Shown in pieces: positions 2,680-29,979 of a stretch of DNA of 32,000 nucleotides. Source of the stretch: Candidatus Saccharimonadota bacterium (lineage in GTDB: Bacteria; Patescibacteriota; Saccharimonadia; Saccharimonadales; UBA4665); the NCBI GenBank assembly GCA_016699935.1, contig CP064992.1, forward strand, positions 750,001 through 782,000, written 5' to 3'. Made by a program: the position numbers and the translations under genes. The stretch's first letter is position 1. Each line of letters opens with the position of its first letter. A model generated the notes under the pieces. It searched no databases. It was not told the DNA's origin and was given only the letters and a program-made list of their open reading frames with translations.

Positions 2680-4678
2680 ATGCAAATACCGGTTTACCAA
2701 AAGAGCAAAGTACAACGAATTCGCATTCGTCGTGTCACGCCGCTAGAGAATTCTCCGACAAACTCCATACGAGGTCTTCAGGCTCTAAAACAAACAATAC
2801 ATCGCAGAGTTGGACGTAATCCGCTTCTTCGTCGCAGTTTTCGTTGGCCGATTGCTTTCGTGGGTGAACGAAGGAAAGCCTTATTCAATATTGGCTTATT
2901 CATTGGGTTCATGGTCGGTTACATCGGTGTCACGAACGGCATTGCCTATGCTCATCAAACCGTCCGCGCCGAACATGTCGTGAATCACGCAGTCAACGAG
3001 CCAATTCGCGTTGTGTTTAGTCGTCCTGTGAAAAGTGGGCTGCAGTATGGCTGGCAGGAAAATATTAAAGGTTCATGGCGCTTCGAAAAACAGCTGGGTG
3101 GTGTGCGGGCGCTTGTATTTACTCCTAAAGCGACCCTTACTCCGAACTCGGTGTTGCACCTTCGACTTAAAAAAGTGCAGCCAACAGCCGATATTATGAG
3201 TAATACGCCGAGCGAGCAAATAGTCCAGGTTGTCATGGAGCGTGCGCCTCGTGTCACGGCTCAAACTCCAGCGAAAAAAGCGGCGCTGGTCCGTCCAAAC
3301 AGTGCAGTGTCGGTTCGCCTGAGCGGGCCAAATAAAGGTCTTCGCGCACTTGTCTTAAGTGGTGATATACCTGTTGTGTCACCAAAACCATCTAGCCGAG
3401 ACGACATGCTTTTCCAGTGGAAGCTCAGTAAGGCTCTCGACCAAGGTAAAATGTACCACGCTGAGGTGAGAGACACACAGCAAAGCGGCGAGAAACAAGT
3501 TGTTGCAGTGTTTGATTTTACGACCGTCGCAGAGCCGCGGGTAACAACGAACGCCAGTGGGTATTTAGGCCCAAACCAAACAATTATACTTAGTTTTGAC
3601 CAAGATATGGTAGCGACTGCAAATACGGTGCAGTTCACCATGCCCGGGAAGGGTGCTTGGGACAGTAAACGCCAGTACAGCTTCACTACGAGTTTAGTAG
3701 TGCCGGGTACGACCTATAGCTATAAAGTAAGCAGTGGGACGAGCTCGGTACACGGTGGGGTCATGACAACTGAAAGCGTTTTTTATGCCCAAACTCCGGG
3801 CAATGTTAAGGTAGCGAGCGCCCAACCATCAGGAGCTCGTGTTCCTCTTGCGACCTCACTCAGCCTCACTTTTGACCAGCCAGTCGATAAAAATAGCGCC
3901 GAAAACGCATTTTATATCCAACCAAAGGTAGCAGGTAGCTTTAGTTGGTCGGGCAACACCATGACCTACCGGGTGTCCGGTTTGAGTGAGCAGACCACAT
4001 ACAGCTACGGTGTTGCGCCAGGCATCAAGCCCGTATTTGGTCTTGTAGGCATCGCTTTCGATAAGCAGTTCACGACAGTTCCACCGATTCGTAAGCTTGC
4101 TGTGCCGTTTTATCGCCAGGCTCATAGTCTCAGCTGCGAGTCGGCGTCATTGCGTATGGCACTCGCTTCGTACGGTGTTATGACAAACGACGATGAGATA
4201 CTTGGGCGAGTCGGCTACAGCCCGCAACCGCGCGATACAGCTCACGAACACTTGGCAAGATCCGTACCTGATGTTCGTGGGAAGTGTGGACGGCAAAATT
4301 GGTGTGGATGGCTGGGGTGTTTACTCGGGTCCGATTGCCACGGCGGCTCGGTCATTTGGGCGCAGCGCAGATGCGATTACCGGCGTGTCAGCAGGGCAGA
4401 TTGCTACAGCAATTCACAGCGGAAACCCGGTAGTGCTCTGGGGCGTGAGCGGCTGGGCAGCCAAAGAAGATAGCTGGAATACGGCTACGAGCGGTGTCGT
4501 CCGTGCGCCGCGAAATGAGCATGTTCGCGTGGTGTACGGAGTGGAGGGCAGGGCAGATGCGCCACTCGGTTTCTATATATACGATCCGCTCGGTACAAGT
4601 AGTGGGCTGTATTGGACGGTCGCTCAGCTCCAAACCAATTCTGCCGCTGGTGGCGGTCATGCGGTTATCGTCCGCTAA
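2680..4678 (+). CDS. Membrane-anchored protein with Ig-like repeat region and C-terminal C39-like (YvpB-type) cysteine peptidase domain; one frameshift near 4235-4250
   Basis: AGGAG lies 8 nt before ATG 2680. ORF 2671-4473 continues in ORF 4193-4678. The text FYRQAHSLSCESASLRMALASYGV...GYSPQPRDT in the first frame is followed by NTWQDPYLMFVGSVDGKIGVDGWGVY...NEHVRVVYGV in the second. Together they read as one peptidase_C39_2-like domain. The upstream part consists of repeated beta-rich segments. Confidence 0.55.
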
Positions 4679-4683
4679 ACTAT

Positions 4684-5696
4684 TCACCGGAGCGTTTTAT
4701 ACAGCTTGAACAGGGCGTACTGCAATGGCTTGTAGACAAAATCTATCGGGTTCGCGTGATCAACGCGGTAGCCACCGAAACGTTTTTTGAAGCCAGTCAC
4801 CCCACCGAGGTCATGGCCTTTGACGTCATCGGTCACTCCGCCGAAGTTAAAGATGGTGCAGCCACGTTTTTGGCTTCTTTCACTGCAGTCCAGATGACGG
4901 TGTAGGCCGGGGCAATCTTGCGAAAGTCGTTGCTAGAGCCAGCAAAGACATAGTGCGCCTGTCTATCATAGACCACAAAGAGTCCAGCGGCGGCTGGCTT
5001 ACCGTCTATGTTTACGAGTACCACAAACCCTTCGTCGTCGTTAAGGGTTTTTAGGTAGGCACCGTAGTAGTTTTTATCGAATATGCCAAAACCATCACGC
5101 TCGCTGGTTGTCTTCATGAGAGAATAAAATGTTTCTAGTGGTGTTTCACGTGGTTTTAAGACGACTATGGATGCTCCCGCGCGCTCGGCGAGGCGCACAT
5201 TGTAGCGAGCATGTTTATGAAAACCCATCCAGATTGTCTCTTCGTCTGGCGAAATGTTCAGCACCCATTCAGCACGCGGCTGTAAACTCGCCGTGCGGGC
5301 AATTTTACCTGGGATGGGTTTTTTTACAGAGATTTGTTTTACCGCATCGTTATCTAAGCGCACAAATGCACAGCCGAGTCTATCTGCTAAAGGTCTGAAA
5401 AATGCTTCAAGATCTATTATGAGTTCTTGCTGCCATTCTTGAGAAACTGGTCCGTACGGACAGTAGAGGAACGTAAGGCCACCCGGCGCGTGGTAGACGA
5501 CTCCTAGCCCGAAACCGATTATCTCACGTTGCTTCATAATGCGCACATAGGCGACGTCTTTGCCGCTACTTGTTTGCAGTTTGCCATACAACGGCGCCTG
5601 TAAGAACGACACAGGCTCTTGTTGCCGCCCAAGATATGACTGGCTGGCTGCCTCATAATCTTCGACTGAACAACTCTGGATTGTATATACGCCCAT
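4684..5696 (-). CDS. FemAB-family peptidoglycan interpeptide-bridge aminoacyltransferase; one frameshift in the T5 run at 4867-4871
   Basis: The 287-aa ORF 4833-5696 has a FemAB/FemX-like N-terminus and core. Lengthening the run 4867-4871 by one base continues it as ..EAKKRGCTIFNFGGVTDDVKGHDLGGVTGFKKRFGGYRVDHANPIDFVYKPL.. up to TGA 4684-4686. That is the typical FemAB C-terminus. Confidence 0.7.
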
Positions 5697-7086: not shown

Positions 7087-7183
7087 CAATGACCAAGCAG
7101 CTTACGAATGACATCATTAATGAATTTGGAGCTCGAAGCCTCCCATTCATTCATTTAGACCGTTACTCATTGCTTGGTCATTG
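7087..7183 (+). promoter_or_regulatory. Long nested hairpin in the pyrG 5' leader (candidate attenuator or regulatory element)
   Basis: The outer stem is 13 bp and perfect: caatgaccaagca (7087-7099) pairs with tgcttggtcattg (7171-7183). The inner stem pairs aatgaat-tt-ggag (7119-7131) with ctcc-c-attcatt (7140-7151). A TACAAT -10-like hexamer sits at 7064-7069. The pyrG GTG is at 7282. Confidence 0.45.
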
Positions 7184-7281
7184 AGGCTTGTTGCTTGCTG
7201 CTCGTTCGTTCAGAGCGCTTGTTGTTGCGCTTGCGGCTAAAACAGCGTATGATTGGTGAGATAAACGGGGAGTGTACAAGC

Positions 7282-8889
7282 GTGAGTGAGAAGCAAACGA
7301 AGTTTGTGTTTGTAACAGGTGGAGTGCTTTCGGGGCTTGGAAAGGGCATTACTGGCGCGTCTATCGCAAATCTGCTTAAAGCGCGCGGTTTATCCGTAAA
7401 TCTTCAAAAATGCGACCCGTATCTCAATGTCGATGCTGGTATGCTTAACCCTCGTGAACATGGTGAATGTTTTGTCACGAAAGATGGTGCTGAGACCGAC
7501 CTTGACCTCGGCCACTACGAACGGTTCATCGACCAAGAATTAACGCGCGAAAGCTCGCTCATGAGCGGACGCGTGTTGCTAGGAGTTATCGAGGCAGAAC
7601 GAAGCGGTAAATACGGGGGTAATACGGTCCAGATCATCCCACACGTCACGCGGGCTATCCAAGAGCATGTTCTCGCGGCAGCCGAAGGGTTTGATGTCCA
7701 TATTGTCGAGATTGGCGGAACAGTAGGGGACTATGAGAGCCTGTCGTTTGTTGAGGCTATCCGGGAGCTCAGGATGCGAGTGGGGAGGAAAACTGCCTCT
7801 TTGTCCACGTTGTCTACATGCCGTACCTCGGCGCAAGTCATGAGTTCAAAAGCAAGCCAGCTCAAAACTCCGTTCGTGAATTGCGCGGCCTCGGTATAGC
7901 TCCAGATATACTTGTGTGCCGAAGTGAAGACAAAGCCCCCTGAGAGCATAAAAGATAAACTTAGCCTCTTCACTGGCGTGGGTCCAGAGGCAATTGCGCT
8001 GCTCCCAAATGCCGAAAGTATCTACCAAGTACCACTCACTCTCGAAGATACTGGTATCGCCGATGTTATTAGTAGCAAGTTATCGCTAAATGTAACCAAA
8101 CCAGACCTGCGGGAATGGCGAGCTGTCGTCGACAAAGCACTTGCTAAACCAAGCCAGACCGTTCGGGTTGGTGTGGTTGCGAAGTACCTCGACAACGCCG
8201 ATACGTACATGTCTGTTTTTGAAGCAATTCGTGCGGCTGCCTGGGCAAATGATGTGGCAGTTGAGATTACCTGGATTGATGCGCCCAAGCTCGAAACAGC
8301 AACAGATGATGAAGTGGCGGCTGAACTGACGAAGGTCGATGGTATCGTCGTGCCTGGTGGGTTTGGTTCGCGTGGGGTAGAGGGCAAAATTCGTGCGGCG
8401 CAATATGCGCTGACGCACAAACTGCCATATCTCGGACTCTGTTATGGGCTGCACATGATGGTTATTGCAGCAGCACGGCTACATGGGTACGAAGATGCGA
8501 ATACCACAGAGGTGAACCCCGACACCACGGCCGCAGTTATAGACACCATGGAAGGCCAAAAAGGCAAAGAAAACACTGGTGGCACTATGCGGCTCGGTGA
8601 CTACGCTTGCCATTTTGAAGCCGACAGTCTGGCCGCCAAACTGTATGGTACGCAGGATATCGTGGAGCGACACCGGCACCGGTATGAAGCGATGGGTCAG
8701 TATGTTGCCGAGTACGAAAGTTGGGGGATCCGCGCGAGTGGTATGAACCCAGACAACGGGCTTGTTGAGGTAATAGAAGGCGTTGATCATCCGTTCCTGA
8801 TGGCGAGTCAGTACCACCCCGAATTCAAGAGTCGCCCCAATCGCCCACACCCTATGTTCCAGGGTTTCATTGCCGCTCTTAAGAAATAA
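7282..8889 (+). CDS. pyrG: CTP synthase; two frameshifts (G4 run 7782-7785 and C5 run 7936-7940)
   Basis: [23 protein letters not shown]... is the canonical PyrG N-terminus. The segment [52 protein letters not shown] reads in a third frame between ORFs 7174-7899 and 7912-8889. The C-terminal glutamine amidotransferase domain shows [10 protein letters not shown] and YHPEF. Confidence 0.9.
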
Positions 8890-9916: not shown

Positions 9917-10876
9917 ATGGTTGCTCAAGGAGAACAATCTCACACTCCTGAGCGAATTGTTGTTGTGCTTGGGCCAGAGCTACCCTTACTTCATAAGGTT
10001 GAGCTTGGCGAAAACCATCAAGACAGTCCAGTTATGGTTGGCGAAAAAACCAGTATATACTCTGGTCCGGATAAGCAAAAAATTGTTTCGGAAGCAGAAG
10101 TTATTACGGATTACTATGACTTTCTTTCGCGAGTACAGTCTACTGCAGAAAAAGACTCAGGTGCAAAAGCAGAAACGGCGCTTGGAGATGCGAGGCGATT
10201 TGCGTCTGAAACTGTATTTATGACAAAGACTGAACGAGAAGACGCGACAAGAGGTTTGGCGGCGCACTACGTCAAATATCTTGCAGGAGATAGTACGCAC
10301 GAGTTATTGCTTTTTGTGCCGATACGTCGGCATGATCACAGCCAAGGTTTTGTATCAAGGGAAATAGCTGCGCAGATCAAAAATCTTGACCCCACGCTTG
10401 CAGGCCGAGTTCATATAACTTCGCTGGAAGAGGGAGACGATACGACAGAAGACCTCAAGAAAATACCAGAGAAGAACACAAAAATTGGCATTTTTGATGA
10501 CTGGTCTGTCACCGGTAATCACCTTGCAAATGCACTAGCGCATGCTGCCCAGTCATTAGATCGAGAGGGGTTGGCACGATTCAAGTCAGCGCTTGAGGTA
10601 GGCCTTTTGGTGGCCCGCGACGATCAGTTGCAGGGGGGGTTTGATGCTATTATGCAAGATGTTGAAGCATCTCATGGACTATCAGGAGTACCTGTAGTGA
10701 GCTATTTTAAGTCTCCAGCCCGTCAGCAGTATCATGGTCCGATGCCTACCGGTAGCCACGCTTCAGTAGATTATGGTTTTGAAGGTCGCATTCAGGCAAT
10801 GCGCGATTATCTCGCTGAGGTGACGCATGTGGACGAACGTCTACCCTGGATGGCTGCAATAGTTAGACAGTACTAG
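9917..10876 (+). CDS. Hypothetical protein with a phosphoribosyltransferase-like (PRPP-loop-like) motif
   Basis: Intact 319-aa ORF starting 8 nt after the receiver gene. KIGIFDDWSVTGNHLANAL resembles the type I PRTase PRPP-binding motif (a hydrophobic strand, two acidic residues, then x-x-T-G). I recognised nothing else. Confidence 0.6.
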   Translation: MVAQGEQSHTPERIVVVLGPELPLLHKVELGENHQDSPVMVGEKTSIYSGPDKQKIVSEAEVITDYYDFLSRVQSTAEKDSGAKAETALGDARRFASETVFMTKTEREDATRGLAAHYVKYLAGDSTHELLLFVPIRRHDHSQGFVSREIAAQIKNLDPTLAGRVHITSLEEGDDTTEDLKKIPEKNTKIGIFDDWSVTGNHLANALAHAAQSLDREGLARFKSALEVGLLVARDDQLQGGFDAIMQDVEASHGLSGVPVVSYFKSPARQQYHGPMPTGSHASVDYGFEGRIQAMRDYLAEVTHVDERLPWMAAIVRQY

Positions 10877-10965
10877 TACATATATACGTAGAGAACATTT
10901 TATACAACTTATGCTACTATTTATAGTTCTCACAAATTAAAAAATTAAAGGATAAAAAAACAAAA

Positions 10966-11216
10966 ATGACAGAAGTACCACTAGGTATAAAGACGCGCTT
11001 GATGCTCAACGCGCTGAAGATGTACCGATACGGCTGAAGCCGAGAAACTTGCGTCCATCAGAGTTGCTCGCATCACGCGAGATCGGATTGCGGACGAGCA
11101 TGGTAAGTGCTGGGATCGCGGAAGAGGTTATCCGCGATCAACCATCATTGGACCCATCTGCGGGATCTCAGATGGTGGATGCTCTCGGTCCTAATGTCAT
11201 CAACAGAATTTGCTAG
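10966..11216 (+). pseudogene. Possible small ORF (~83 codons) with a broken start frame
   Basis: ATG 10966 with AAGGA upstream opens a frame that stops after 23 codons. A different frame stays open to TAG 11214-11216. It reads ..YKDALDAQRAEDVPIRLKPRNLRPSELLASREIGLRTSMVSAGIAEEVIRDQPSLDPSAGSQMVDALGPNVINRIC and has no start codon of its own. Confidence 0.25.
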
Positions 11217-11410
11217 CAAGATATAATACTTCAAGTTGTTGTCGTCATACCCCAGTTATTGGCTAAGCTGGCATCCATGATTTGTTATTAATCAGGATAC
11301 TAGTTTCGTAGCATAGAACAAGTGTCGGTATCTTTGGCTGCTATTGAGATAACTTCACAGCAGAACAGAGTATTAATAACTTGGCCTTTATGTTTGCGTG
11401 GTAGAAGCGC

Positions 11411-11500
11411 TTATTCGACGGTGACTTCGGTGCGGCGGACGGATTTGTCGCTGAAGGTGCGGATTTTGCGGATCTGTATTCTCTGCCTTCTAGCCGACAT
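11411..11500 (-). other. Duplicate of the rpmA 3' end, readable as a 29-codon mini-ORF
   Basis: The reverse strand reads MSARRQRIQIRKIRTFSDKSVRRTEVTVE*. Positions 11412-11471 match 12290-12349 (the rpmA C-terminus SRKIRTFSGRSVRRTEVTVE*) at 53 of 60 positions, including identical blocks of 29 and 14 nt. Confidence 0.8.
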
Positions 11501-11536
11501 TTTTCCCCGAGCCAAGATCCCCATATATGAAGAAAA

Positions 11537-11563
11537 CTGTCCCAGCTGGGACAGAAATGTAGA
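11537..11563. repeat. Left copy of the palindromic repeat (partial palindrome)
   Basis: ctgtcccagctgggacagaaatgtaga is identical to 12169-12195. The core tctgtcccagctgggacaga is self-complementary. The outer left arm diverges from the perfect right copy. Confidence 0.85.
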
Positions 11564-11650
11564 TTATGGTGACATTACGCAAGCGAATCGGTGGCTATCG
11601 AGGCAAGTAAAGAACAAATGAGGAGATGTCAGGTTTTTAGGCGGACACTT

Positions 11651-12146
11651 TCAAAAGAACTGCACACAGCCCTCTATGTCCAGCTCTTTAATCGCAAGTC
11701 GAATAGTCTCGCGGTGGTCAAGGTTGGTCGCCCAGACGCTTTGTTGGACAAGTTCGAATTCAAGATTGTGCAAAAGTCGCTTCAGGGCTCTCCGTTCGGA
11801 TTCCATGTGTTCGGAGGTATGTCGTATATCAGTAAAACTAATCGGGCGTTGTTGCCGAGTTTTTGCGCAATGTAAGGCTTTATTTTTGCCGACCATGGCT
11901 GGTGAGCCGGGGAATTGTGTCTTCAGTAATGAGTCCGCTTTTGCGCGCCCGGTAGAATGACTGCTGCAGAGTTTGTTGCTTGTAGCCGGAGACTTTGGAG
12001 AGCTCTGCAAAAAACAGACTGGGTTTGAATGAAAGCAGCACGTTTTCTCGCGTGGGAGGGAAAAGACCACGTAGCACGTATATGAGGGCAGGGTGCTTCA
12101 TGTTCTTGTACTTTTCCAAATGACTCCAATCGTACTGCTGTCTCAT
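11651..12146 (-). CDS. PaaX-like small regulator (N-terminal winged-helix region + C-terminal Cas2-fold domain); one frameshift in the run 11883-11887
   Basis: ORF 11880-12149 (MRQQYDWSHLEKYKNMKHPALIYVLRG...FYRARKSGLITEDTIPRLTSHGRQ) joins ORF 11651-12070 (..KALHCAKTRQQRPISFTDIRHTSEHMESERRALKRLLHNLEFELVQQSVWATNLDHRETIRLAIKELDIEGCVQFF) if the A5/T5 run is shortened by one base. The C-terminal pattern matches the beta-alpha-beta Cas2-like/PaaX C-terminal domain as I remember it. Confidence 0.6.
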
Positions 12147-12160
12147 CAACTGACACTATA

Positions 12161-12194
12161 CTACATTTCTGTCCCAGCTGGGACAGAAATGTAG
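12161..12194. promoter_or_regulatory. Perfect 34-nt palindrome over the promoter of the PaaX-like gene (candidate operator or element end)
   Basis: ctacatttctgtcccag/ctgggacagaaatgtag is fully self-complementary. On the minus strand it abuts TATAGT (12160-12155). ATG 12146 follows 8 nt later, which is a leaderless geometry. Confidence 0.6.
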
Positions 12195-12222
12195 AATTTA
12201 TGGGGGAGTGTCCTGTTACACT

Positions 12223-12250
12223 AAAAAAGGCCAATGTCTTGGCCTTTTTT
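12223..12250 (-). terminator. Bidirectional intrinsic terminator downstream of rpmA
   Basis: aaaaaa-ggcca-atgtct-tggcc-tttttt. It is enclosed by an 8-bp inverted repeat, gttacact (12215-12222) / agtgtaac (12275-12282). A tandem 12-mer tagatatgagag x2 lies at 12250-12273. Confidence 0.75.
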
Positions 12251-12288
12251 AGATATGAGAGTAGATATGAGAGAAGTGTAACTAGCTA

Positions 12289-12561
12289 CTATTCGACGGT
12301 GACTTCGGTGCGGCGGACAGAGCGGCCGGAGAAGGTGCGGATTTTGCGGCTGGCCATTTTGACGGTGCCGTCTTTGGCAGCGTGGATAGTGAAGTTGCGG
12401 CTAAGGGTGGTGCCTTTGCCAGCCCGCTTGCTTGCGCCAACTTGGCGGACGATAACTTGACCAGTTTTTACGGCTTGGCCGCCAAAAAGCTTGACGCCTA
12501 GGCGTTGGCCTTGGCTATCGCGTGTATTTTTACTTGTTCCACCGGCTTTGACATGTGACAT
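12289..12561 (-). CDS. rpmA: 50S ribosomal protein L27
   Basis: MSHVKAGGTSKNTRDSQGQRLGVKLFGGQAVKTGQVIVRQVG... is the canonical L27 N-terminus. AGGAG lies 6 nt upstream of ATG 12561. The 13 extra codons in the ORF track (start at 12600) are leader sequence. Confidence 0.92.
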   Translation of the reverse strand: MSHVKAGGTSKNTRDSQGQRLGVKLFGGQAVKTGQVIVRQVGASKRAGKGTTLSRNFTIHAAKDGTVKMASRKIRTFSGRSVRRTEVTVE

Positions 12562-12782
12562 AGTTGCTCCTGGATATGCGGCCCCTCGGAGGCGGCGCAT
12601 TGCTGCGTTATCCGCTCCTGCATTCTCGCTCTCCGTACCGAGGTACGGTTCGCTGTGGGTGCCGAGCGGCTGCCTTGCACTGCATCCACCCTCGAGGGGC
12701 CTTGACAGTGGTCGGTTGACGCTTAGGTTTTTAAATAAAGAGGAAGAAAGGTGGTGACCGTCCTTGCCTCAATCTCCTGAGG
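12562..12782 (-). promoter_or_regulatory. ~220-nt GC-rich structured 5' leader of rpmA (possible r-protein autoregulatory leader or separate ncRNA)
   Basis: It lies between a strong promoter and the rpmA SD. It contains the hairpin ccgtac-CUCG-gtacgg. It also has 9-nt long-range complementarity between ggcccctcg and cgaggggcc, the latter just upstream of the SD. There is no L21-like reading frame and no rplU gene here. Confidence 0.4.
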
Positions 12783-12817: not shown

Positions 12818-13477
12818 CTAACGTGATTTATCGGTGCGGAGGAAGCGGACGCCAGCGTAAACAATAGGAGTAGTCAGTAGTGATAAACCACAGCGAAGGA
12901 GCCAATAAGGAATGAGTAAGCCGACGATGAACGAAATATTCTCGCCAAAACCCACGTTTAGGGCAAAAAATGCAGCCGTTAGAAATACGGCAGAATCGAC
13001 GAATTGTGAAACGAAGTTTGAGGCGTTATTGCGGAACCACAGGGCGCGTTTGTGCATGCGAGCGCGGAGTTTTGCAAAGATGGCTATGTCAAGGAAGGCC
13101 GAAGAGGCAAAGGCAATTAGGCTGGCGACAGACATACGGATGGAGTTATGAAACACGCTGTCGTAGGCTGCCTCGTTACCCTACCGCCGTGCGCTGGGCG
13201 GGAGGGCAGTTGCGAGCGTGGTGTAGAAAATGAGCAGGACTATGACGGCTAGACCAGAAAAGACCATGCTGCGTGCTCGTTCACGGCCGCGTACCTCGGT
13301 CACAACATCGGTCAGGGTAAACAGGAGAGGCATGAGAAAAATCGCCACGCTCGCACGAAGGGTATAGTCGCCAAGGTGGCCGATAACGAACGTCTTCGCG
13401 CCCATCAGCTCAGCGGCCATAATGCCAAATATATACAGTGCAACGACGAGGTCGGCCGGACGAATTAGTTTATTCAC
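12818..13477 (-). CDS. Queuosine-precursor transporter family (YhhQ/DUF165) membrane protein; one frameshift near 13157-13185
   Basis: ORFs 13181-13477 and 12818-13156 together read like a YhhQ-type protein: ...FLMPLLFTLTDVVTEVRGRERARSMV... then ...FLDIAIFAKLR...WFRNNASNFVSQFVDSAVF... Confidence 0.6.
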
Positions 13478-13545
13478 CCTGTTAATTTATCCATAATGTC
13501 ATAGTGTACCTCATGTGCGTACCAAAGTCACGAGCTCGCGCCCGA

Positions 13546-14754
13546 CTATCTGCCCCTCGCGGTGATAAATGAGGTCTTCGTTTGCTGCGTGTTGGAACCG
13601 GGTGCGCTCAAACCCATATCTGACAGATGTGCGAGTAGTGGCAGGTGCTTTTGCTCTCGCCCATCGAACCAACAAGGCAAAGCGAGGCACAGACGAGTGC
13701 CAGGCAGCAGCTGCGGCTTGATGTTTTGCAAAAATCGCTTCAGTATAAGGTTGACTTCAGTAATTGTCTGAGACAGTATGGCCGAAGTGGGTCGTTCAGT
13801 GAAAGGGCGGCCGAGGTAGGTTTCACAGGCAATAACAACATTGGTTGTTGATGATTGGTTGTTGAGCGATTTCCATTGGTAGGTGGTCGCATCGGCGGTC
13901 TCTAGGGTATAGGGCATAGGGCTAAGGGCATAGGTTTGTTGGAGCCAAGTCAGGTTAGCTTTTGTGTAGTCAATCATGCGAGGTTCAAGGTCGGTGCCGT
14001 AGGCTTCGTAACCCATAAGCAGTGCTTCCTGTAGCACAACACCTGTGCCGCAGAATGGATCCAATATGGTAGGTGGGGTTTTGAGGATCTCGTCTCCGAT
14101 TTGTCGGCTGCTATCTAATCCAATCTGGCTATTCGCCAGATTGATAATGACTTGCGCGAGCTTTGGGTGGCAGCATGCCAACGCGGGCATCGCGCTTTTG
14201 ACGTCCGCGGTCACGCAGTGTATAGCTCTCAATATCTTGAATCGCAATCGTTCTGGCGATAATGGTTTTGTTCTGGGAGGCAATGATCAGGAATTCTGTA
14301 CCGTTTTGTTCGGTGAGATGACCGTGAATGACCTGAGCGGCGCCAAGCTCTACGTCATTGTTTGGCACCAGCCGGACGGAACCCTCATGGCGCGAGCGCA
14401 AAACTTTTTGAGCGTTAAGCCCAGCGCGTTGAGCTTGGCGGGCGATATGTCGAATCCGTAGGCGGATAATCCCAGGTGAAACTTACCAGAGGCGGGAAGG
14501 GTAAATGCGGTTGAATCAGTAAGCCCTATGAGGGCTTTTTCAACCTGTTTGAAATTGACACTTGGCACCTCACCTATGACACTGGCGAGCCGTGTACTCC
14601 CGCCCAGACGACTAAAATCAATGGCGGTATGATCTAGGGTAAGTCCTGCAACGCTAGGAGCTACCACCGAAACTGCCTCCGCAGCATACAAACTCTCTAA
14701 TTCAGCCAGTCCCAGTGCTGGCTGTCGCCCCAAAATGCAAACAGATTGAACCAT
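13546..14754 (-). CDS. Putative SAM-dependent RNA (UPF0020/Trm11-like) methyltransferase; two frameshifts (~14400 and ~14200)
   Basis: Three minus-strand ORFs chain together (14350-14754, 14129-14401, 13546-14283). The SAM motif I is ILDPFCGTGVVLQEALLMGYEAYGTDLEP. The N-terminal domain resembles the substrate-binding module of these methylases. Confidence 0.5.
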
Positions 14755-15836: not shown

Positions 15837-15949
15837 TCAGCATGTCACCATGTACCTGTCGCCTGGCTCTAGCCTGCAAGGTGTCGCCATTGATGCGAGA
15901 TCCACAACTAACGGATAAAGGATAATGTATTGTGACAGGTGACAGGCAA

Positions 15950-17080
15950 ATGACTAATCCCATCTTTTCCGTCAGTGATTTCGTGGCAGTGCTCAATCAG
16001 ACGCTGGAGTTTGCGTATCCCTTCGTAGAAGTCGAGGGTGAGCTCAGCAACTTTCGTGTCAGTAAAAACAAATGGGTGTATTTTGACCTCAAGGACGAAA
16101 CGGCGAGCCTGAAGTGTTTTGCAACTGTCTATGCGCTGCCTGGTCCGCTCGAGGACGGCATGGTGGTGCGAGTGGTGGGGTCACCGCGGTTGCACCCGCT
16201 ATACAACTTTAGTTTTCAGGTGCAATCTGTTGTACCAGTTGGCGAAGGGGCGCTTAGGCGGGCGGCAGATATGCTGGCAGCTAAGCTTGAAAAGGAAGGA
16301 TTGTTTGATTCGAGTCGGAAGCGTCCACTGCCGTACCCACCACGACGAGTGGCGCTCATTACTGCCGGAGATTCGGCAGCCTACGCAGATTTTGTGAAGA
16401 TTTCGAATGCACGGTGGGGTGGGCTGCATATAGTCCACTACAATGTGCTGGTACAGGGCGAACAAGCGCCGGGAGATCATCGCCGCCCTCAAAAGGGTGA
16501 ATGAATCAGATGTAGCGCCCGATGTGATTGTTATGGTTCGCGGCGGGGAGTACTGAGGATTTAGCGGCGTGGAGTGATGAGCGAGTGGTGCGGGCGGTGG
16601 CAGGGAGTCGCGTGCCAACATTGGTCGCTATAGGCCACGAGGTAGATGTGAGCCTTGCCGAGCTCGCGGCCGATTGCCGTGCCAGTACGCCGAGTAATGC
16701 CGCGGAGCTTCTTGTTCCCGATAGAAACAGAAGAGCGACGCCATCTGCGAGCCTACCGCCGCCGGCTTGATGAACAGCTCGCAGTACGTATTGTGCACCG
16801 CCGCACTGGCTTGGTGATGCTCACCGAACGCATGGATGAAGAACTGCGGAGGGTTGCCCGGCTTGCACGCCAACGGTTTTCAGTCGCGACGGCATTGCTC
16901 GCAGCTTTCGACCCGGTTCGTCCGTTGAACCAGGGCTATGCTTTTGTGCAGACCCCCGCAGGCAAAACGCTAACTCGCGCCGCTCAGTTACATGTAGGTG
17001 ATGACATCCAGGTTAAATTTATAGATGGTACAGCGGAATCCCGGGTGAAATCAGTACTGGCAAATAAGGAGGTTATATGA
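15950..17080 (+). CDS. xseA: Exodeoxyribonuclease VII large subunit; at least 3 frameshifts (~16468, ~16548, ~16725)
   Basis: The N-terminal OB fold reads MTNPIFSVSDFVAVLNQTLEFAYPFVEVEGELSNFRVSKNKWVYFDLKD. Later segments read ..IIAALKRVNESDVAPDVIVMVRGGGSTEDLAAWSDERVVRAVAGSRVPTLVAIGHEVDVSLAELAAD.. in shifted frames. The gene overlaps xseB at ATGA 17077. Confidence 0.85.
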
Positions 17081-28515: not shown

Positions 28516-28818
28516 ATGATAGCAAAATGGAATGGTCAAGTTATTGCCGAGGCCGAAAAGGATGAGTTGATATATATAGAGGGGAACTGGTATTTTCCGC
28601 CGACGGCGATTAAAAAGGAGTTCTTCATACCGTCCGAAACCCATACTACTTGCGCCTGGAAGGGTGAGGCTAGCTACTATAATGTCGTAGTTGGTAGCGA
28701 ATCAAATAATGATGCTGCTTGGTATTACCCAGTGCCAAAAGACGGTTCGATCGAACGCGTCCATAAAGATTACACAAATTATGTGGCCTTTTGGCGAGGA
28801 GTGGAAGTTAATGGATAA
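28516..28818 (+). CDS. DUF427 domain protein
   Basis: The 100-aa sequence ...GNWYFPPTAIKKEFFIPSETHTTCAWKGEASYYNVVV...AAWYYPVPKD...VAFW fits the DUF427 pattern as I remember it. Confidence 0.65.
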   Translation: MIAKWNGQVIAEAEKDELIYIEGNWYFPPTAIKKEFFIPSETHTTCAWKGEASYYNVVVGSESNNDAAWYYPVPKDGSIERVHKDYTNYVAFWRGVEVNG

Positions 28819-29979
28819 CGATTGGGATTCGGTACAGCTCAGAAAAATAGCTGCGGAGCAGGGGACGCCGCTGTTTGTTTATTCGCGGCAGCTACTAGTA
28901 GATCGGGCAAACCAAATCGCTAAGCTAGAGCTACCATTTGGTTACACGCCTCGTTATGCCATGAAAGCCAATAATCACCCAGAAATTATACGAATGTTTC
29001 ACGAACTTGGGTTGCATTTCGACGCAAGCTCAAGCTACGAGGCGAGTGAATTATTAGCACAAGGAATCCCAGGTGAAAGTATCAGCTTGTCGAGCCAACA
29101 GCCCGCACATAATTTGGAAGAATTTTGCAAGCGGGGGTAAATATGTGGCGACTTCTATGCATCAACTAGAATTGGTTTTGCAAGAAAACAATGCCCACAA
29201 CAGATAGGACTACGTGTCAATCCCGGTATTGGGGCAGGACACAATAATAGGCTGATGACAGGTGGAGCGAATAGTAGCTTTGGACTGTGGAATGCCTATG
29301 TACCCGAGGCGCTACAACTAGCTAATAAAAATGGGGTGAAGATTGATCGGCTGCATGTTCATATTGGTTCTGGGGCAGACCCGAAAATGTGGGGTAAAAT
29401 ACTCGAAACAGCGCTCGGTATAGCAGAAATAATGCCAGATGTAACTAGTCTCGATTTGGGAGGGGTTTCAAAATACATCGCTACGGCGATGAACATGAAG
29501 CTGATATGGAAGCTATCGCAGCTGAAATTAGCCATCACCTGCAGATATTTGCTGATAAAACGGGTCGAAAACTGCAGATGGAGCTTGAGCCGGGCACCTG
29601 GCTGGTTGGTCATGCCGGAGTTCTGCCGGCAAAAATAGTTGATATAGTCGATACCGGTGCAGACGGCCATACGTTTTTACGGCTTAATACCGGTATGAAT
29701 GATTTTGCTAGGCCAGGTATGTACGGTGCGCAGCACATCATCGCAGTACTAAATGATGCGATTGATACTCAAGAGTATGTCGTCGTGGGTCACAACTGTG
29801 AAACTGGTGATATCATCACTCCGGCAGCCGGTGACCCAGAGGGGATTGAGTCTCGCGAGCTTAGGCAAGCTAATATTGGTGACGTAGTAGTTATCTATGA
29901 TACGGGCGCCTACTGTCGGACGATGTCTCATAAAGGATACAATAGTTTCCCAAGTGCTAAAGAAATATTCATAGATTAA
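28811..29979 (+). pseudogene. PLP-dependent Orn/DAP/Arg decarboxylase family enzyme (lysA-like), frame-broken (at least 3 switches)
   Basis: GTPLFVYSRQLLVDRANQI..YAMKANNHPEIIRMFHELGLHFDASSSYEASELL (with the PLP Lys in YAMKAN), GLRVNPGIGAGHNN, LHVHIGSGADP, SLDLGGG-like, ELEPGTWLVGHAGVL and VVGHNCETGDII..GAYC chain across ORFs 28691-29140, 29255-29638 and 29506-29979. Confidence 0.65.

Follow-up and report, generated by a model that had tools for sequence, protein, structure and literature searches.

A duplicated rpmA 3' end around an HTH-Cas2-like gene in Saccharibacteria: a possible ancient insertion scar

Background

Why should the last sixty nucleotides (nt) of an essential ribosomal protein gene occur twice, on the two sides of a single small regulator gene? 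The question is raised by a 32,000-nt stretch of the genome of a Candidatus Saccharimonadota bacterium (contig CP064992.1, positions 750,001 to 782,000; hereafter the window). In this window the 3' end of rpmA (encoding ribosomal protein L27) is found at the end of the gene itself and again, as an orphan copy, beyond an adjoining gene for a helix-turn-helix (HTH) and Cas2-like protein. An original prediction made from the sequence had taken this arrangement for the footprint of a small element that targets the 3' end of rpmA.

Comparison with related genomes indicates that the last 60–75 nt of rpmA were duplicated in an ancestor around an insert consisting of an rpmA-type terminator and a self-contained HTH-Cas2-like regulator gene. 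By the same comparison, one copy keeps rpmA intact and the other is the orphan, distal to the insert. The explanation that we favour, tentatively and with a little less than even confidence, is that the repeat is an old insertion scar at the rpmA 3' end which has been kept recognizable by gene conversion, and which arose through recombination anchored at the rpmA end without a dedicated integrase. In every viable model DNA integrates at the rpmA end and this end becomes duplicated; the models differ in the enzyme responsible. The cassette locus is not demonstrably mobile.

Results

Two copies of the rpmA 3' end

The two copies, at positions 11412–11471 and 12290–12349, are identical at 53 of 60 positions (88%), which reproduces the original prediction exactly. 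All seven mismatches are confined to a central patch of 12 nt. On either side of it the copies match perfectly, over blocks of 29 nt (stop-proximal) and 19 nt; the first of these lengths had been given correctly in the prediction, but the second had been put at 14 nt. The repeat is the longest direct repeat of the window, and its 27-nt core occurs exactly twice in the 32 kb and not at all in 100 shuffles.

The right copy (12290–12349, reverse strand) comprises the working last 20 codons of rpmA, which occupies positions 12289–12561 of the reverse strand with its TAG stop codon at 12289–12291. The gene encodes a protein of 90 amino acids (aa) that matches Pfam Ribosomal_L27 (E=7e-22) and is 61–90% identical to the L27 proteins of 80 Saccharibacteria loci. 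The left copy (11411–11471, reverse strand, TAA stop included; nhmmer E=1.2e-14) is the orphan, and the two had been told apart correctly. Reading of the left-copy open reading frame (ORF), which has 37 codons, or 29 counting from an inner ATG, bears out that the frame and the stop codon are retained in both copies, the orphan ending in ..RKIRTFSDKSVRRTEVTVE before its stop. The homology ends exactly at the stop codon, as had also been noted; this is true of all the copies described below, and the sequences beyond the stop differ. There is no RNA structure at the orphan region (z=+1.6) and the region has no Rfam match, even at E≤1.

The gene copy is of an allele type that we term 'GR' (..FSGRSV..), with the codons TCC GGC CGC TCT in the central patch. 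The closest relatives have the same allele type, the copy being identical at 58 of 63 positions to that of locus L001 and at 57 of 63 to that of L002. The patch of the orphan is of a 'GK/DK' type, reading AGC GAC AAA TCC.

Distribution and age of the orphan

Our comparison set consisted of 80 rpmA loci from different Saccharibacteria species (one representative each), and second copies were sought by tblastn with the L27 C-terminus and with a 75-nt nucleotide profile of the rpmA end. The empty sites expected under the original prediction are present, with about 80 species representatives having a single rpmA end and no cassette. No second L27 C-terminus was found by tblastn among the 80 species loci, nor did the profile find a significant second rpmA-end copy among about 80 cassette-less species. 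Four further lineages carry the cassette gene behind rpmA (L081–85, L086–87, L088–92 and L098–99), with nucleotide identities to the window of about 70–76% where measured, and close homologues of the cassette protein exist at 70–86% identity. Where contigs are long enough these loci share the synteny Vut_1, rpmA, cassette, variable genes, response regulator and CTP synthase.

Significant extra copies of the rpmA end were identified in the window (E=1e-14), L081 (4e-5), L098 (4e-8) and L088, which has two of them (6e-17 and 1e-12). These two are called c2 and c3, in order of distance from the gene. L086 has no orphan detectable in the profile search. Degenerate extra copies in L081 (404–431 and 477–504) and L086 (5820–5844) are not significant in this search (E=0.45 or unreported), their flanks have no significant homology with those of L088 c2 (z=1.2), and they are not relied on here. 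Short-read assemblies of other lineages, made independently, show the same arrangement, and the duplication is therefore not an assembly artefact, an objection that the original prediction had raised against itself.

L081, L086 and L088 have about 71–76% nucleotide identity to the window and to one another, which makes them about as distant as the cassette-less L001 and L002. The orphan-bearing lineages are about 74–76% identical to the window where this was measured. Because the cassette gene has diverged to about the same degree as the flanking core genes, there is no sign of recent transfer between these lineages.

The orphan begins 76–78 nt past the centre of a palindrome located downstream of the cassette gene in the window, L081, L088 and L098. 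The spacer that separates the palindrome from the orphan is 65 nt long in the window (11472–11536, reverse strand) and lies at 4607–4670 in L088, 1209–1271 in L081 and 859–921 in L098. Its length is 63–65 nt in all four lineages and its sequence is at shuffled-level identity except in the close pair L081/L088. Nearby non-coding stretches vary in length by 50–200 nt, and the spacer only from 63 to 65 nt. The orphans are 69–82% identical among lineages, with both flanks at random level. The orphans of the window and L098 share the patch AGC-G(A/G)C-AAA-TCC (Ser-Gly/Asp-Lys-Ser), whereas the gene copies of the cassette lineages have an Arg codon (CGN) in place of the orphan AAA, and mostly different Ser codons as well.

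The common position of the orphan and the shared codon patch imply that the duplication is ancient and inherited and that the insertion predates the split of the lineages. By these criteria the orphan appears to have a single ancient origin, older than the split of at least four present lineages. A recent or private insertion does not agree with an orphan at the same position in three other lineages. The sequence AGC GGC AAA TCC is exactly that of the real rpmA genes in L008 and L012, and the nearest relatives of the window all have the Arg form of the patch. The orphan therefore descends from a functional rpmA allele, of a type that the nearest relatives lack.

Stacked copies in L088 and a variable gene slot

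In L088 three copies of the rpmA end bound two stacked inserts. The end of rpmA itself (2205–2277) is followed by a reverse-strand gene of 399 aa, c2 (3670–3742), a palindrome, the cassette gene, a second palindrome and c3 (4655–4727). Beyond c3 lie a terminator and a reverse-strand gene of 549 aa. A three-copy pattern of this kind is typical of a recurrent insertion site.

Homologues of the 399-aa gene lie directly behind rpmA in L002 (E=4e-15), which has no cassette, and behind the L081 orphan. Searches of Pfam, PHROGs, PADLOC and NCBIfam gave no family or recombinase signature for the 399-aa gene and no informative matches for the stacked and variable neighbour genes. The 549-aa gene has homologues directly behind rpmA in L021 and L042, and behind the L098 orphan. 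The sequence behind c3 matches the L081 terminator located after rpmA (z=13). From these homologies of neighbour genes and terminator, the stacked unit is an rpmA end together with the ordinary downstream neighbour of other lineages. The same blocks are found in a different order in L081 and L088. The left boundaries of the copies are at about −57/−60 (window, L098 and L088 c2), −63 (L081) and −75 (L088 c3); they are blurred by decay and conversion, and represent about two independent events.

At many loci a convergent response-regulator gene and CTP synthase come immediately after rpmA, and at others one reverse-strand gene lies between. As the content of this interval differs among loci, the stretch from rpmA to the response regulator is a hypervariable gene slot. 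The response-regulator 3' end, on the other conserved side of the slot, was not seen a second time at any locus (0 of 63). The slot of the window extends over 9917–11410. Slot genes are on the reverse strand and belong to no known family. Two slot families recur, one in L002, L081 and L088 (341–399 aa) and another in L021, L033, L042, L088 and L098 (about 450–550 aa). For the 319-aa slot gene of the window, 5.8 billion proteins gave just two homologues, both distant, and exact-match queries with its product and with the L27 of the window (two alternative starts) returned no record.

A local tandem duplication, running from about −60/−75 of rpmA through the downstream gene and followed by loss or replacement of one interior, could give two copies of the gene end without any foreign DNA. 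In its favour, terminator-like sequence lies behind both copies of the window, that behind the orphan being a possible leftover of a second rpmA terminator (11375–11389, reverse strand; AAAGGCCAAG, which the real terminator also contains). However, this similarity is marginal (z=3.0, reached by 1.3% of shuffles). The weak, degenerate rpmA-end repeats behind the terminator in L081 and L086 are spaced about 85 nt apart and might be old tandem units, but as noted above they are not significant. The seven changes in the window are clustered in 12 nt, unlike random drift, and the patch of the orphan matches the natural allele of other lineages rather than that of the nearest relatives. We consider a tandem duplication to be quite improbable.

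Decay and gene conversion of the orphan copies

Real rpmA genes of different lineages differ from one another by 4–8 synonymous and 0–1 non-synonymous codons. L088 c3 differs from its resident gene in five codons, all of them synonymous. Since this resembles the divergence between genes, c3 looks like a functional allele and not like a drifting duplicate. The orphans of other lineages have decayed, undergone internal deletion or been lost. The L098 orphan has two synonymous and six non-synonymous changes and has lost its stop codon, L088 c2 has two non-synonymous changes, and the L081 orphan has lost 24 nt, in frame, between two GTCCGC repeats.

This pattern bears on a further reading, in which the orphan itself has a function, either as an RNA or DNA element held at a fixed distance from a second PaaX-type operator or as a small peptide corresponding to the L27 tail. 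The identity of the orphans between flanks at random level, the constancy of the spacer despite a sequence that is randomized between most lineages, and the lack of non-synonymous change in c3 are all in its favour. Protein-level constraint is absent, however: the orphans of the window and L098 differ in eight codons, seven of them non-synonymously, and L081 and L088 are offset from each other by 1 nt in the reading frame that leads into the copy (manual count). The conserved 29-codon protein contemplated in the original prediction fails on the mostly non-synonymous changes, and we rejected a small ORF on these codon changes, the stop lost in L098 and the deletion in L081. An RNA element fits poorly with the lack of structure and of Rfam matches reported above and with the location of the orphan after a terminator-like hairpin, and the absence of a detectable orphan in L086 argues against any conserved role. 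A functional orphan seems to us highly unlikely.

Partial gene conversion offers another reason for the preservation of the copy. The rpmA gene of the window has a lineage-specific ATC (Ile) codon, which is also present in the window orphan. The corresponding codon is GTC or GTT in both copies of L081, L088 and L098 and in the L086 gene. The shared ATC, together with the perfect 19- and 29-nt blocks around the unconverted patch, shows that the resident gene overwrote parts of the orphan, which has thus been partially homogenized with rpmA. Such conversion explains why a 60-mer that does not code retains 88% identity to the gene between randomized flanks. It may leave a part unexplained, as one would not expect the unconverted patch and the constant spacing to be so well preserved.

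The cassette between the copies

In the orientation of rpmA the sequence between the copies consists of a tandem 12-mer, a terminator hairpin, a 34-nt palindrome, one gene, a partial palindrome and the 65-nt spacer. The terminator, two palindrome copies and PaaX-like gene of the original prediction are all there, although the second palindrome is only partial. The intrinsic terminator of rpmA (12221–12252, reverse strand; AAAAAAGGCCAAGACATTGGCCTTTTTT) is a hairpin with an inverted repeat of 14+14 nt at 100% and an RNA fold z of −4.3, and is homologous to the sequence behind the L081 rpmA gene (z=6.5). Between the rpmA stop and this terminator, repeat finding gave two tandem copies of a 12-mer (12250–12273; TAGATATGAGAG). 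A comparable tandem in L098, with two copies of CTCTCTATCCATC, was seen by eye.

The cassette gene (11629–12149, reverse strand) was reconstructed by three-frame translation and encodes an HTH and Cas2-like ('mini-PaaX') protein, with homologues P0001–P0007 at 51–86% identity. With three frame disruptions repaired, the product matches PaaX_M (E=5e-10, 39.8 bits, cut-off 24) and, more weakly, Cas2. The Cas2 model TIGR01573 is above its cut-off of 24.5 in the homologues P0003 and P0007 (26.9 and 30.7 bits). The N-terminal half of the protein resembles the HTH of sigma-factor region-4 type, and intact homologues have 155–170 aa. The protein resembles PaaX and Cas2 in combining an N-terminal HTH with a Cas2-like domain. 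However, it is half the size of PaaX, lacks the PaaX C-terminal domain and has its own flanking palindromic direct repeats. An AlphaFold model from a 7-sequence alignment was too poor for use (mean pLDDT 46.8), and a metagenome scan with the protein returned three short contigs only.

The breaks in the gene are at about 11883–11887 (A-run, −1), 11813–11816 (+2) and 11653–11656 (T-run, +1). Other genes of the window are affected as well. The conserved genes for CTP synthase, the exonuclease VII large subunit and an Orn/DAP decarboxylase (in three pieces) are split, the gene for a Vut_1 transporter has an in-frame TAG, and the C-terminus of a methyltransferase is in a different frame within the window. 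ORF and domain scans gave the split or stop-bearing regions as 7174–8889, 13181–13183, 13511–13690, 15932–17080 and 28691–29979. The only break that could be placed is that of the exonuclease gene, in a short G-run near 16545; the frameshift in CTP synthase is unplaced. The homopolymer location of this one placed break points to uncorrected long-read indel errors rather than to genome decay. Given the many other split genes, and with two of the three cassette breaks in homopolymer runs, the frameshifts are not proof that the cassette gene is a pseudogene; sequencing error and pseudogenization are equally likely.

The upstream palindrome (12158–12197; z=−7.0) contains a perfect palindrome of 34 nt at 12161–12194. 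It is followed by a −10-like TATAGT, and the start codon of the PaaX-like gene is 5–8 nt beyond this box. The mRNA of the gene is probably leaderless, and the palindrome is a probable operator overlapping its promoter. A palindrome is kept ahead of every homologue, with a core specific to the lineage. The downstream copy (11537–11563, reverse strand) is a 27-nt partial version in which the right arm has been swapped for a T-run. It is terminator-like, gave the only terminator-like match of the terminator scan, and stands behind the gene in all homologous modules.

Every member of the family that we examined is flanked by direct repeats of 27–47 nt with a palindromic core, 535–632 nt apart, as in L043 (3929–3961 and 4545–4577), L096 (322–358 and 861–897) and L097 (1284–1330 and 1819–1865). 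The core differs by lineage, both copies changing together with the protein. It is GTCCCAGCTGGGAC in close relatives, GTACGGCCGTAC in L096 and TCACCGATCGGTGA in L097, and the L043 palindrome is centred on GGCGGCCGC. The palindrome is found only beside this gene family, and the position of the module is constant within each clade. We rejected the palindromes as the ends of an element because their core co-varies with the protein. This co-variation, the overlap of the upstream copy with the −10-like box and the T-run that ends the downstream copy identify the palindromes, at the level of sequence, as the putative operator and terminator of the protein's own gene. The flanking palindromes suggest a self-regulated, solo Cas2-like module.

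The original prediction had proposed the PaaX-like cassette as an element that targets rpmA. The same module, palindromes included, is located between aspS and a CBS-domain gene in L093, L095 and L096, and near rpmA but not adjoining it in L043, in each case with no duplicated gene ends, and the proposal is not supported by this distribution. A second, truncated (93-aa) member of the HTH-Cas2-like family is apparently encoded in the same genome outside the window (P0008, locus tag IPL68_02445). It is closest to the type located between aspS and the CBS-domain gene in the other clade. A neighbouring protein of the window is 100% identical to one that bears an IPL68_ locus tag and is encoded on a 1.23-Mb Saccharibacteria contig.

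Search for a recombinase or a mobile carrier

The original prediction had remarked on the lack of a nearby integrase, and this is confirmed: the 32-kb window gave no match to any family of integrases, resolvases or transposases, and no integrase was called in the loci of the five cassette-bearing lineages. ORFs behind rpmA in relatives and cassette lineages, 88 in all, hit 29 Pfam families, and the 25 most frequent of these include no integrase or transposase. Scans of viral contigs with two degenerate rpmA-end patterns and the cassette protein gave no match, nor did tblastn of phage genomes and plasmids. There is no CRISPR array or cas1 near the HTH-Cas2-like gene. A dif/Xer-like or integron attC-like site in the 60-nt copy was rejected by eye, there being no dif-like core and no hairpin. 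Literature searches on rpmA as an att site, and on integrative elements of Saccharibacteria, brought up no relevant report.

An HTH-Cas2-like protein is present in every lineage that shows the duplication. It is conceivable, though unlikely, that the rpmA end is the platform of an undescribed gene-stacking system, in which cassettes, each with a copy of the gene end at its start or finish, would be inserted, reordered and exchanged by a recombinase acting in trans, or conceivably with help from the HTH-Cas2-like protein. The conserved orphan, at its fixed distance from the second binding site of this protein, would then be a working recombination site.

The neighbourhood upstream of rpmA

In the window, L083, L086 and L088, the interval from a methyltransferase gene to rpmA contains the gene for the Vut_1 transporter (queuosine-precursor/vitamin uptake type; 12818–13477, reverse strand) and a leader. 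L001, L002 and L004 have no room there for Vut_1 and the leader, which is a second insertion difference beside rpmA. The leader is a conserved, structured region of about 150 nt upstream of rpmA (12562–12715, reverse strand) that is common to the window, L086, L088 and L008. A promoter-like TTGACT-18-TATAAT precedes it (12812–12783). RNAalifold analysis of four sequences gave 35 base pairs, 15 of them with compensatory changes, and the leader has no Rfam match even at E≤1. Its predicted structure suggests that it may be an undescribed ribosomal-protein leader or a riboswitch-like element.

Discussion

How the copies could have arisen

In the explanation that we favour, the rpmA end would serve as a homology anchor through which DNA of related Saccharibacteria recombines by way of the conserved gene end. 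The route could be single-crossover integration of a circularized fragment, or homology-anchored recombination with one illegitimate junction. An incoming rpmA end with its neighbour would occasionally be added in front of the resident DNA instead of replacing it, and the displaced gene end would remain as the orphan. No dedicated integrase would be needed. The homology would end at the stop codon because sequence conservation between lineages ends there. We favour this integrase-free model on account of the neighbour-type cargo, the boundaries that range from −57 to −75, the coincidence of the end of homology with the end of conservation, and the lack of any visible integrase.

Several points weigh against it. 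The mechanism is unobserved, and a single crossover or an illegitimate junction within the anchor would each be rare, yet at least two events of the same geometry appear to have taken place here. A homology-driven process might be expected to leave some scars at the 3' end of the response-regulator gene, and there are none. Conservation of the orphan and of its 63–65-nt spacing exceeds that of neutral flanks, a hint of some function outside the model. The search covered the window and not the whole genome, so that a recombinase in trans is possible, and the sample of lineages is small, with five that carry the cassette.

The rpmA 3' end could instead be the true attachment (att) site of a recombinase encoded elsewhere or since lost. 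The window would then be an integrase-less remnant resembling a cis-mobilizable element (CIME), and L088 would be a product of tandem accretion. Remnants without an integrase are well documented, as is tandem accretion (PMC5704250). Two or more events of the same geometry at a single site, giving three copies in L088, are readily explained in this way, as is the different order of the blocks in L081 and L088, which is expected if any copy can be used. The lack of duplication at the other flank of the slot is likewise in keeping with a specific site. However, no integrase was found in the window, in related loci or beside rpmA in about 80 species, and no attP-like copy in viral contigs. The left boundaries differ, and the cargo is ordinary chromosomal neighbour DNA of relatives rather than the genes of an element. 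The insertion is also ancient and vertically inherited, its gene having diverged much like the flanking core genes. The integrative-element geometry of the original prediction thus stands as far as the copies bracket inserted DNA at the rpmA 3' end and leave rpmA intact, but no integrase-bearing relatives were found. We regard an att site as a serious but doubtful alternative.

Comparison with known systems

Integrative elements and CIMEs of streptococci are found at the 3' ends of rplL, rpsI and rpmG (PMC4701971, PMC5704250). As in those elements, a direct repeat of the exact 3' end of a conserved, terminal ribosomal protein gene brackets foreign DNA and the gene is left intact. The streptococcal elements also include integrase-less remnants, and their tandem accretion gives at least three att copies (PMC4701971, PMC5704250). 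In contrast, no integrase-bearing element has been found for rpmA or Saccharibacteria, and the rpmA repeat has 60–75 nt compared with 12–54 bp. The variable left boundaries, a cargo that is the neighbour gene of related chromosomes and the age of the insertion are further differences.

Tandem genomic islands at ssrA (the tmRNA gene) of Dehalococcoides likewise use the end of a conserved gene as insertion site (PMC3146451). The two cases are alike in having a single conserved gene end as the insertion site for acquired DNA; rpmA differs in being protein-coding and in that no integrase was found. In Dehalococcoides a repeat of the ssrA end separates one island from the next, and site-specific integrases are carried by the islands or adjoin them.

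In staphylococci, staphylococcal cassette chromosome (SCC) and pseudo-SCC elements are located at the 3' end of rlmH (orfX), and include recombinase-less cassettes that are flanked by repeats and often stacked into composites. Their repeats are the 15–18 bp sites on which the CcrAB serine recombinases act, and these enzymes occur in the population. The rpmA locus is similar in that a conserved gene related to the ribosome has its end repeated around the cassettes, but no equivalent enzyme has been identified.

Recombination without an integrase also has precedents. In a Campbell-type single crossover, one homologous anchor suffices to add foreign DNA, and the anchor is duplicated on both sides. 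Homology-facilitated illegitimate recombination in natural transformation also requires a single anchor, and like Campbell-type integration it has been described in the laboratory. We know of no natural case in which the end of one gene is used again and again as an anchor for stacking alternative neighbour genes.

Conclusions

The genomes of Saccharibacteria are tiny, and both their mobile elements and the ways in which they acquire genes are poorly known; the rpmA locus provides a concrete route. The end of an essential ribosomal protein gene would be a recurrent entry point, at which foreign genes of unknown function can be added or swapped without damage to rpmA. If the process is driven by homology, it would be a clean natural case of stacking at a conserved anchor, in which a short pseudogene fragment is maintained by gene conversion. 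If it is driven by an enzyme, the locus would represent a new attachment-site specificity in a phylum with none described, and potentially a handle for genetic tools in bacteria that are hard to manipulate.

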